Assembly: GCF_024502345.1 (NCBI RefSeq)
Contig: NZ_JALDNN010000001.1
Length of the DNA stretch: 64,000 nucleotides
Strand: one strand, 5' to 3'
Source: Escherichia coli
Lineage (GTDB): Bacteria; Pseudomonadota; Gammaproteobacteria; Enterobacterales; Enterobacteriaceae
Part shown: positions 33,664-33,836 of the stretch, one piece after another
Layout of the letters: every line of letters begins with the position of its first letter
How positions within the stretch are numbered: position 1 is the stretch's first letter
Notes under the pieces: generated by a model
What the model was told of the DNA's origin: nothing
Database searches by the model: none
Seen by the model: only the letters and a program-made list of their open reading frames with translations
Translations under genes and position numbers: made by a program

Positions 33664-33675
33664 GCGGTTAAATGC

Positions 33676-33775
33676 TGGATCCGGCATGAACGCCTTATCC
33701 GGCCTACAAAATCGCTTAAATTCAATATATTGCACCATCCTCGCAGGCCTGATAAGCGTAGCGCATCAGGCAATT
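33676..33775. repeat. REP/BIME elements between kdpE and pgm
   Basis: GCCGGATAAGGCGTTCATGCCGGATCC (inverted) and GCCTGATAAGCGTAGCGCATCAGGC palindromes seen directly. Confidence 0.7.
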
Positions 33776-33792
33776 CTGTGTTTGTCATACGT

Positions 33793-33828
33793 AAAAAAGG
33801 GCGATCTTGCGACCGCCCTTTTTTTATT
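33793..33828. terminator. bidirectional rho-independent terminator between convergent kdpE and pgm
   Basis: AAAAAAGGGCG-ATCTTGCGA-CCGCCCTTTTTTTA: GC stem flanked by an A-run on one side and a T-run on the other. Confidence 0.75.
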
Positions 33829-33836
33829 AAATGTGT

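Follow-up and report, generated by a model that had tools for sequence, protein, structure and literature searches.

An empty-site kdpE–pgm allele of Escherichia coli that lacks speFL–speF–potE and is probably old

The cadA "black holes" of Shigella are a case of loss of an amino-acid decarboxylase locus. The kdpE–pgm interval of the E. coli DNA analyzed here resembles that case in that an inducible biodegradative decarboxylase/antiporter pair is naturally absent from part of the species; it differs from the Shigella cadA loss in that there is no evidence of pathoadaptive selection at kdpE–pgm and in that the deletion there is small, precise, and common to nonpathogenic and environmental lineages. 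The other process with which the locus can be compared is recombination between REP palindromes. Deletions arising by recombination of 35-bp REP repeats are documented in E. coli (Cui & Bikard 2016, PMC4872102), and the formation of F′128 (Kofoid et al. 2003) is cited as REP–REP recombination in the same paper. Among the genes concerned, ybfP has been listed among the accessory genes that show enrichment in phylogroup A (PMC5422975), and a study of APEC takes speF/potE as conserved (PMC6307189). In the literature, we found no paper describing the polymorphism reported here as such.

The window, which is the whole 64,000-nt stretch of DNA that was analyzed, contains kdpE and pgm as convergent genes with 173 bp between them (33664–33836; Table 1). 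This spacing had been claimed in an initial annotation made from the sequence alone; its coordinates are exact, and NCBIfam identified the two open reading frames as KdpE and Pgm, all of the proteins at the locus being well-known equivalogs. The neighbors expected of these genes were also found with NCBIfam, namely KdpD upstream of KdpE and SeqA and YbfF beyond pgm. Both kdpFABCDE and pgm are intact, the window Pgm being 99.6% identical to K-12 Pgm over residues 1 to 546 (tblastn). As a threshold for E. coli sensu stricto, we used at least ~96–97% nucleotide identity to E. coli references, clearly above the cryptic Escherichia lineages. The window is 98.2% identical to K-12 over 11.3 kb, and its identity to other Escherichia is 93.4% for E. 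whittamii (lineage L007), 93.8% for a divergent lineage labeled E. coli SCPM-O-B-8794 (L008), and 92.2% for E. albertii. A cluster of seven tRNA genes (Met-Leu-Gln-Gln-Met-Gln-Gln; 51906–52607) and the sRNA sroC in the gltI–gltJ region (60998–61160) are intact and represent ordinary K-12-like content.

The K-12 chromosome (NC_000913.3) has the pgm stop at 715198 and the kdpE stop at 721056, and the 5,857 bp between them hold ybfP, the pseudogenes ybfG′ and ybfI′, potE, speF, and the leader peptide gene speFL; ybfK and ybfH are older gene names. The K-12 map on which the initial annotation relied was right, and alignment to K-12 established that pgm and kdpE are not adjacent there and that the intervening segment is missing from the window. 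Positions 32000–33661 of the window match K-12 722719–721058 at 97.7% identity and positions 33673–36000 match K-12 715362–713035 at 98.6% (blastn). The left breakpoint falls inside the kdpE stop codon, which reads CTT-TAG in the window and CTT-TGA in K-12, and on the right, similarity to K-12 resumes at the outer edge of the ybfP–pgm BIME (33673). Thus, K-12 shares with the window the pgm-proximal BIME and the terminator but differs in having 5.7 kb of extra sequence (ybfP, the DUF2625 pseudogene ybfG′, ybfI′, a second terminator, potE, speF, and speFL) and a kdpE TGA stop followed by an AT-rich leader; no REP was found in K-12 between kdpE and speFL. A mobile island would be marked by an integrase or recombinase, a tRNA or att-type target, and flanking direct repeats. 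The annotation of the 5.9-kb K-12 interval contains no integrase, transposase, or tRNA, and the sole repeat flanking the extra segment is ybfI, which duplicates 142 bp from the kdpE 3′ end. That many genera have the speFL–speF–potE module at this very site is consistent with an insertion into the chromosome that is old and is exchanged by flanking homology. A second K-12 segment absent from the window is the 9.7-kb RhsC element (rhsC, ybfB, ybfO′, ybfC, ybfQ, ybfL′, and ybfD); at that site, ybgA (24768–25277) and ybfA (25379–25585) are ~101 bp apart (gap 25278–25378), and the homology that the window shows to the loci of E. whittamii and E. albertii likewise starts at 25324.

A census of 5,426 complete E. 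coli genomes distinguished four structural alleles of the kdpE–pgm interval. The commonest, found in the majority of genomes and typified by CFT073 and O157:H7, is allele B (kdpE-speFL-speF-potE-(56 bp)-pgm). It resembles the window in its flanking genes and pgm-proximal terminator but contains speFL–speF–potE, has a potE–pgm gap of only 56 bp, and has no BIME; most E. coli genomes, carrying this allele, are without ybfP, ybfG, and ybfI altogether. Allele A, the K-12 arrangement (kdpE-speFL-speF-potE-ybfI′-ybfG′-ybfP-BIME-pgm), is present in about 1,848 genomes, approximately one-third, and allele D (kdpE-REP pair-ybfP-BIME-pgm; wlxctx60 and E. coli 042) in 246. The window carries allele C (kdpE-BIME-pgm), which was detected in 94 genomes (1.7%), including O145:H28, O169:H41, O139:H1, O18ac:H14, and other strains, with a junction identity of 95.4–99.3% across the 94. 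In 353 genomes, kdpE and pgm were matched in one place. Full-length speF was found in 5,042 genomes, and 299 had no speF match at all. The speF-less forms together make up about 7% of complete E. coli genomes, the O145:H28 EHEC lineage included. The kdpE gene ends with TAG in all Escherichia empty-site alleles, as it does in the window (33661–33663), and with TGA in the speF-bearing alleles when alleles and species are compared; in both C and D, the TAG stop is followed by GCGGTTrAA.

Strains O145:H28 (RM13514 and RM9872), O18ac:H14 873.10, and FDAARGOS_943 and FDAARGOS_944 carry the same allele C and agree with the window in their breakpoints, TAG stop, 9-nt linker, variant REP (TGCTGGATCCGGC...), BIME, and terminator. 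Compared with that of the window, the spacer is 100% identical in 873.10 and 98.1% identical in O145; O145:H28 differs in lacking the 11 bp ATTCTGTGTTT beside the terminator, and the flanking genes differ by 1–2.5%. K-12, E. whittamii, and the L008 lineage share this 11-bp segment with the window, and it is absent from the O145:H28 C allele and both D alleles. Because the O145:H28 form of C shares this 11-bp deletion with D, allele C is not one simple haplotype, and recombination or homoplasy has to be assumed within ~100 bp.

The content that had been claimed for the spacer, REP palindromes and one bidirectional terminator, was borne out by repeat search, inverted repeats, and folding. The kdpE-proximal REP differs by three mismatches from a 34-mer, GCCGGATGCGGCGTGAACGCCTTATCCGGCCTAC, that is found exactly at 5786, 41104, and 49580 and with one mismatch at a fourth site. 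Allowing up to three mismatches, the 34-mer has five matches in the window, where none is expected (100 shuffles). It fits the definition of a REP, an imperfect palindrome of roughly 35 nt that matches the REP consensus of the species and has many copies outside genes, and it lies here between convergent genes. Inverted arms at 33694–33705 and 33745–33756 are 92% complementary with 39 nt between them, and the first REP, a 35-nt linker, and the inverted second REP together constitute a BIME. The same REP pair is conserved in K-12 (between ybfP and pgm), strain 042, E. whittamii, and the L008 lineage. The counterpart of the 9-nt linker in allele D is GCGGTTGAA. The G+C-rich terminator hairpin has a minimum free energy (ViennaRNA) of −16.0 kcal/mol when read from the plus strand and −21.5 kcal/mol from the minus strand and is preceded by an A6 run and followed by a T7 run, which provide U-tracts on both strands; as predicted from these features, it would serve both convergent units, kdp and pgm. 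A consensus terminator scan of the spacer left this hairpin unflagged because of one internal A–C mismatch in the stem. No RNA family was detected in the spacer with Rfam at gathering thresholds, the naRNA4 and ES036 matches falling at other BIMEs. When the window was aligned to the near-identical genome 873.10, the sole breaks were at REP/BIME sites, one at ~1305–1502 between sucC and sucB (Rfam naRNA4) and the other at ~41135–41208 at the REP 41104–41137. These breaks indicate probable changes in REP copy number between close relatives.

Table 1. Features of the kdpE–pgm junction, in window coordinates
Feature	Position	Strand	Evidence and remarks
kdpE	32986–33663	+	Full-length, 225 codons, response regulator; NCBIfam NF007820, 485 bits, residues 1–225
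9-nt linker GCGGTTAAA	33664–33672		Specific to empty-site alleles C and D; matches neither K-12 flank
REP GCTGGATCCGGCATGAACGCCTTATCCGGCCTAC, left half of BIME	33674–33707	+	34-mer repeat matches; alignment to D alleles and K-12
Second REP, inverted relative to the first; plus strand GCAGGCCTGATAAGCGTAGCGCATCAGGCA	~33743–33772	−	Inverted-repeat pair I2
11-bp segment ATTCTGTGTTT	33773–33783		Alignments; marks sub-haplotypes
Predicted bidirectional intrinsic terminator AAAAAAGGGCGATC-TTGC-GACCGCCCTTTTTT	33793–33824		Inverted repeat I1, 14-nt arms, 93% complementary
pgm (phosphoglucomutase)	33837–35477	−	546 codons, stop codon 33837–33839; TIGR01132, 1074 bits

To judge the age of the junction, we compared it with other Escherichia lineages. 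Both E. whittamii and the L008 lineage have kdpE with a TAG stop, ~10 nt, the BIME, the terminator, and pgm in this order, and each aligns with the window as a single HSP running through the junction. Their spacers are 83.7% (E. whittamii) and 84.4% (L008) identical to that of the window, a divergence of ~16%. The kdpE genes of the C and D alleles are ~97% identical to those of other E. coli alleles and 91–92% identical to those of the two lineages. The same layout coupled with spacers only ~84% identical argues that the empty-site allele is old and has diverged in step with the species, and the strain appears to have inherited it rather than to have undergone a recent deletion. Recent import of allele C from E. 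whittamii or the L008 lineage was considered and rejected on the grounds of the ~84% spacer identity and the E. coli-like flanking genes. The initial annotation had proposed that this lineage either lost the segment or never acquired it. The segment is indeed absent, but the proposal understated the age of the absence, which is shared with E. whittamii and the L008 lineage. We put at roughly 0.8 the probability that the window carries an old empty-site kdpE–pgm allele, C, without speFL–speF–potE. According to this reading, the module would have entered the kdpE–pgm site early in the evolution of the Enterobacteriaceae and since been lost, or swapped out via the conserved flanks, many times. 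An empty-site allele with the BIME would then have arisen in Escherichia before E. coli and E. whittamii diverged, whether because the module was deleted or because one allele replaced another by way of the conserved kdpE and pgm flanks, and would have segregated in E. coli beside module-bearing alleles, carried from one background to another by homologous recombination.

The polarity of the change was assessed with a KdpE scan of one genome per species, whose best 80 loci, none of them from Salmonella, E. fergusonii, E. marmotae, or E. ruysiae, were mapped with tblastn. Convergent kdpE and pgm followed by seqA are kept throughout these 80 loci. In every locus listed from Pantoea, Serratia, Dickeya, Pectobacterium, and Yersinia, kdpE is the immediate neighbor of pgm. 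The speFL–speF–potE module occupies exactly the same site and has an unchanged orientation in E. albertii, Citrobacter, Enterobacter, Kluyvera, Lelliottia, Leclercia, Cedecea, Atlantibacter, Trabulsiella, and Phytobacter. It is absent from some Citrobacter, Enterobacter, and Phytobacter species, so that both states exist within these genera, and among the 80 loci, it is also absent from Buttiauxella, Mangrovibacter, Franconibacter, and others. Neither ybfP nor ybfG was found beside kdpE outside E. coli among the same loci. The shared position of the module in E. albertii and the majority of Enterobacteriaceae genera makes its presence before Escherichia the simplest history. The speF and potE genes of allele B are closest to those of E. 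albertii (87–89%), in line with the flanking genes (90–94%), which fits vertical descent of allele B. Within the spacer, we detected no remnants of speFL, speF, or potE, and the stretch without an assignment between the kdpE stop and the REP amounts to just 9 nt; the spacer sequence alone therefore cannot separate deletion from a site into which the module was never inserted. Within Escherichia, the empty site would be a derived loss, as judged from E. albertii and the other genera.

The same comparisons bear on the principal alternative, in which the adjacency of kdpE and pgm descends straight from the ancestral Enterobacterales and speF–potE came later by horizontal transfer, possibly more than once. 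Every distant member of the Enterobacterales sampled has kdpE beside pgm and the module is patchy inside genera, as such a history would predict, and the module haplotypes within E. coli are unusually diverged. Between K-12 and CFT073/O157:H7, potE is 98.5–99.1% identical and pgm and kdpD are 97–99% identical, whereas speF is 92–94% and the kdpE–speF leader, which includes speFL, 74% identical. Over 5,127 genomes, speF identity to K-12 is bimodal (at least 99% in 1,412 genomes and 90–95% in 3,095). So steep a gradient of divergence from the leader through speF to potE within one species suggests that a segment was imported into one haplotype. The K-12 chromosome itself may bear traces of a join. 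Its ybfI (NC_000913.3 716720–716864), just downstream of potE, is 88–90% identical to Escherichia kdpE, 85% to that of E. albertii, and at most 84% to that of Citrobacter, and before ybfI are a REP fragment and a second copy of the terminator with a loop resembling the E. albertii version. Given the uneven identities and the relic of the kdpE 3′ end, the K-12 arrangement is a mosaic rather than the ancestral state of the species, and it looks like a speF–potE module joined onto an empty-site allele carrying ybfG–ybfP. Against a primitive empty site stand the identical position and orientation of the module in E. albertii and most Enterobacteriaceae genera and the agreement between the allele B genes and their flanks in the comparison with E. 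albertii; moreover, an uninterrupted polymorphism over genus-level divergence would be unlikely without repeated transfer. We consider the ancestral-adjacency history unlikely, although it ranks well ahead of a recent deletion and of an assembly artifact.

A bolder extension of the favored reading is that presence and absence of the module form a long-lived trans-species polymorphism. In this extension, the empty site predates the E. coli–E. whittamii split and has been kept rare not by drift and recombination but by selection, either balancing or dependent on the niche, that acts on acid-induced putrescine production, and K-12 represents recapture of the module by an empty-site chromosome. 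We regard this as a speculative proposition with the odds well against it. The variation at the locus is ordinary gene-content variation in a REP-rich intergenic region, of a known kind and involving no new molecular system; its modest evolutionary interest lies in the age of the allele, the K-12 mosaic with its kdpE relic, and recurrent independent losses. One practical corollary is that K-12, carrying a minority mosaic, is a poor reference for the kdpE–pgm interval.

A recent, strain-specific deletion would have cut ~5.7 kb, from ybfP to speFL, out of a K-12-like allele by recombination of flanking REPs. REPs do lie at the junction, REP–REP deletions are known in E. coli (PMC4872102), and secondary losses do occur at this locus, as described below for CUWW10. 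The initial annotation had likewise regarded the REPs as plausible recombination scars, and in one respect this idea holds. In allele D, ybfP is bracketed by REP1 and REP2 in the same orientation, which are perfect 34-nt direct repeats in strain 042, and according to the alignments, the window corresponds to D minus exactly the REP1-to-REP2 interval, the REP at 33674–33707 being the one that such an event would leave at the junction. Like the window, strains 042 and wlxctx60 lack speFL, speF, and potE, and they have its TAG stop and linker after kdpE and its BIME and terminator beside pgm; unlike it, they have kept ybfP, a lipoprotein gene of 495 bp, along with one more REP pair. Alleles C and D may therefore interconvert by REP1 × REP2 recombination or slippage, C being D minus ybfP, or in the alternative direction, C could be the older form and ybfP could have been inserted at a REP to yield D. 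The C layout in sister species would fit C as the older form. Like the deletions described in PMC4872102, the C/D difference has its endpoints in ~35-bp REPs of the same orientation; those deletions, however, were laboratory-selected and span 13–35 kb, whereas the C/D interval is ~0.6 kb and the event, which may have been a deletion or an insertion, is natural and old. ybfP provides a clean natural example of a REP-to-REP indel. For speF–potE, the scar idea fails and REPs were rejected as the cause of its loss from a K-12-like allele, because the kdpE side of K-12, like that of the module-bearing alleles in general, is without a REP and the breakpoint lies inside the stop codon (TAG versus TGA). 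A recent deletion is further contradicted by the junction being present in 94 genomes of unrelated serotypes at 95–99% identity and, with ~16% spacer divergence, in two other Escherichia lineages, and by the majority allele B having none of ybfP, ybfG, and ybfI, which together leave it very improbable. That the contig was collapsed or misjoined at the REPs, dropping the intervening genes, is scarcely credible: although REPs are multicopy and can confuse assemblers and the junction is on a REP, 94 complete genomes have the identical junction, among them closed O145:H28 genomes from several laboratories, two other lineages have it in a diverged form, and the window is collinear with 873.10 at 98.9–99.7% over 64 kb with an identical spacer.

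Loss of speF–potE has also occurred at this locus by other routes. A chimeric probe of full kdpE followed by ybfG was used to seek the predicted K-12 progenitor, kdpE-ybfG-ybfP-pgm. Two genomes, CUWW10 and GF4-3, matched; both have kdpE, an intact DUF2625 gene ybfG, ybfP, and pgm without speF or potE (locus positions 3726–5712). In CUWW10, kdpE is that of K-12 up to its last bases and is followed by the sequence found downstream of ybfI, so that it is clearly the product of a kdpE × ybfI crossover between the 142-bp repeats of a K-12-type allele and represents an independent route of loss. CUWW10 was accordingly discarded as a relic of the K-12 progenitor in favor of a secondary recombinant. 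GF4-3 shares this structure but differs in its kdpE background, and its origin as relic or recombinant is ambiguous; no proven progenitor relic was found among the genomes with the kdpE-ybfG-ybfP-pgm structure. Other genomes contain partial speF remnants. At one locus, speF–potE has thus been lost in different ways, through the old C and D alleles, secondary kdpE × ybfI crossovers, and partial deletions.

To find whether the missing functions are encoded elsewhere, the window and its nearest relatives were screened. Homologs of SpeF, PotE, SpeFL, YbfP, and YbfG were not found in the 64-kb window (tblastn, with K-12 SpeF, PotE, and SpeFL as queries at E ≤ 1e-3). As a proxy for the rest of the genome, where the initial annotation had suggested searching, a probe was built from a REP-free kdpA–kdpB anchor of the window joined to K-12 speF. 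The complete genomes nearest to the window by this probe are FDAARGOS_944, FDAARGOS_943, and 873.10, at 99.8–99.9% identity. On the chromosomes of these three, speF gave no match and the anchor was the single matching place, whereas O157:H7 controls had two places each, the anchor and speF; the search for speF elsewhere was thus negative in the three nearest complete genomes. In the whole collection, there was only one match to a plasmid-borne speF. Given what the module is known to do, the strain would lack the low-pH- and ornithine-inducible ornithine decarboxylase SpeF and the putrescine/ornithine antiporter PotE and would have to use other polyamine routes. speF-less E. coli, which can have neither SpeF-dependent ornithine decarboxylase activity nor putrescine export by PotE, are relevant to biochemical typing and to work on polyamines and acid stress. 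The same probe matched strain MB56 (NZ_CP073936.1, 3229701–3235574) with the kdpA–kdpB anchor and speF within one 5.9-kb place, where kdpB is annotated as a "HAD-IC family P-type ATPase," which suggests an internal deletion of much of kdpB to kdpD in that strain.
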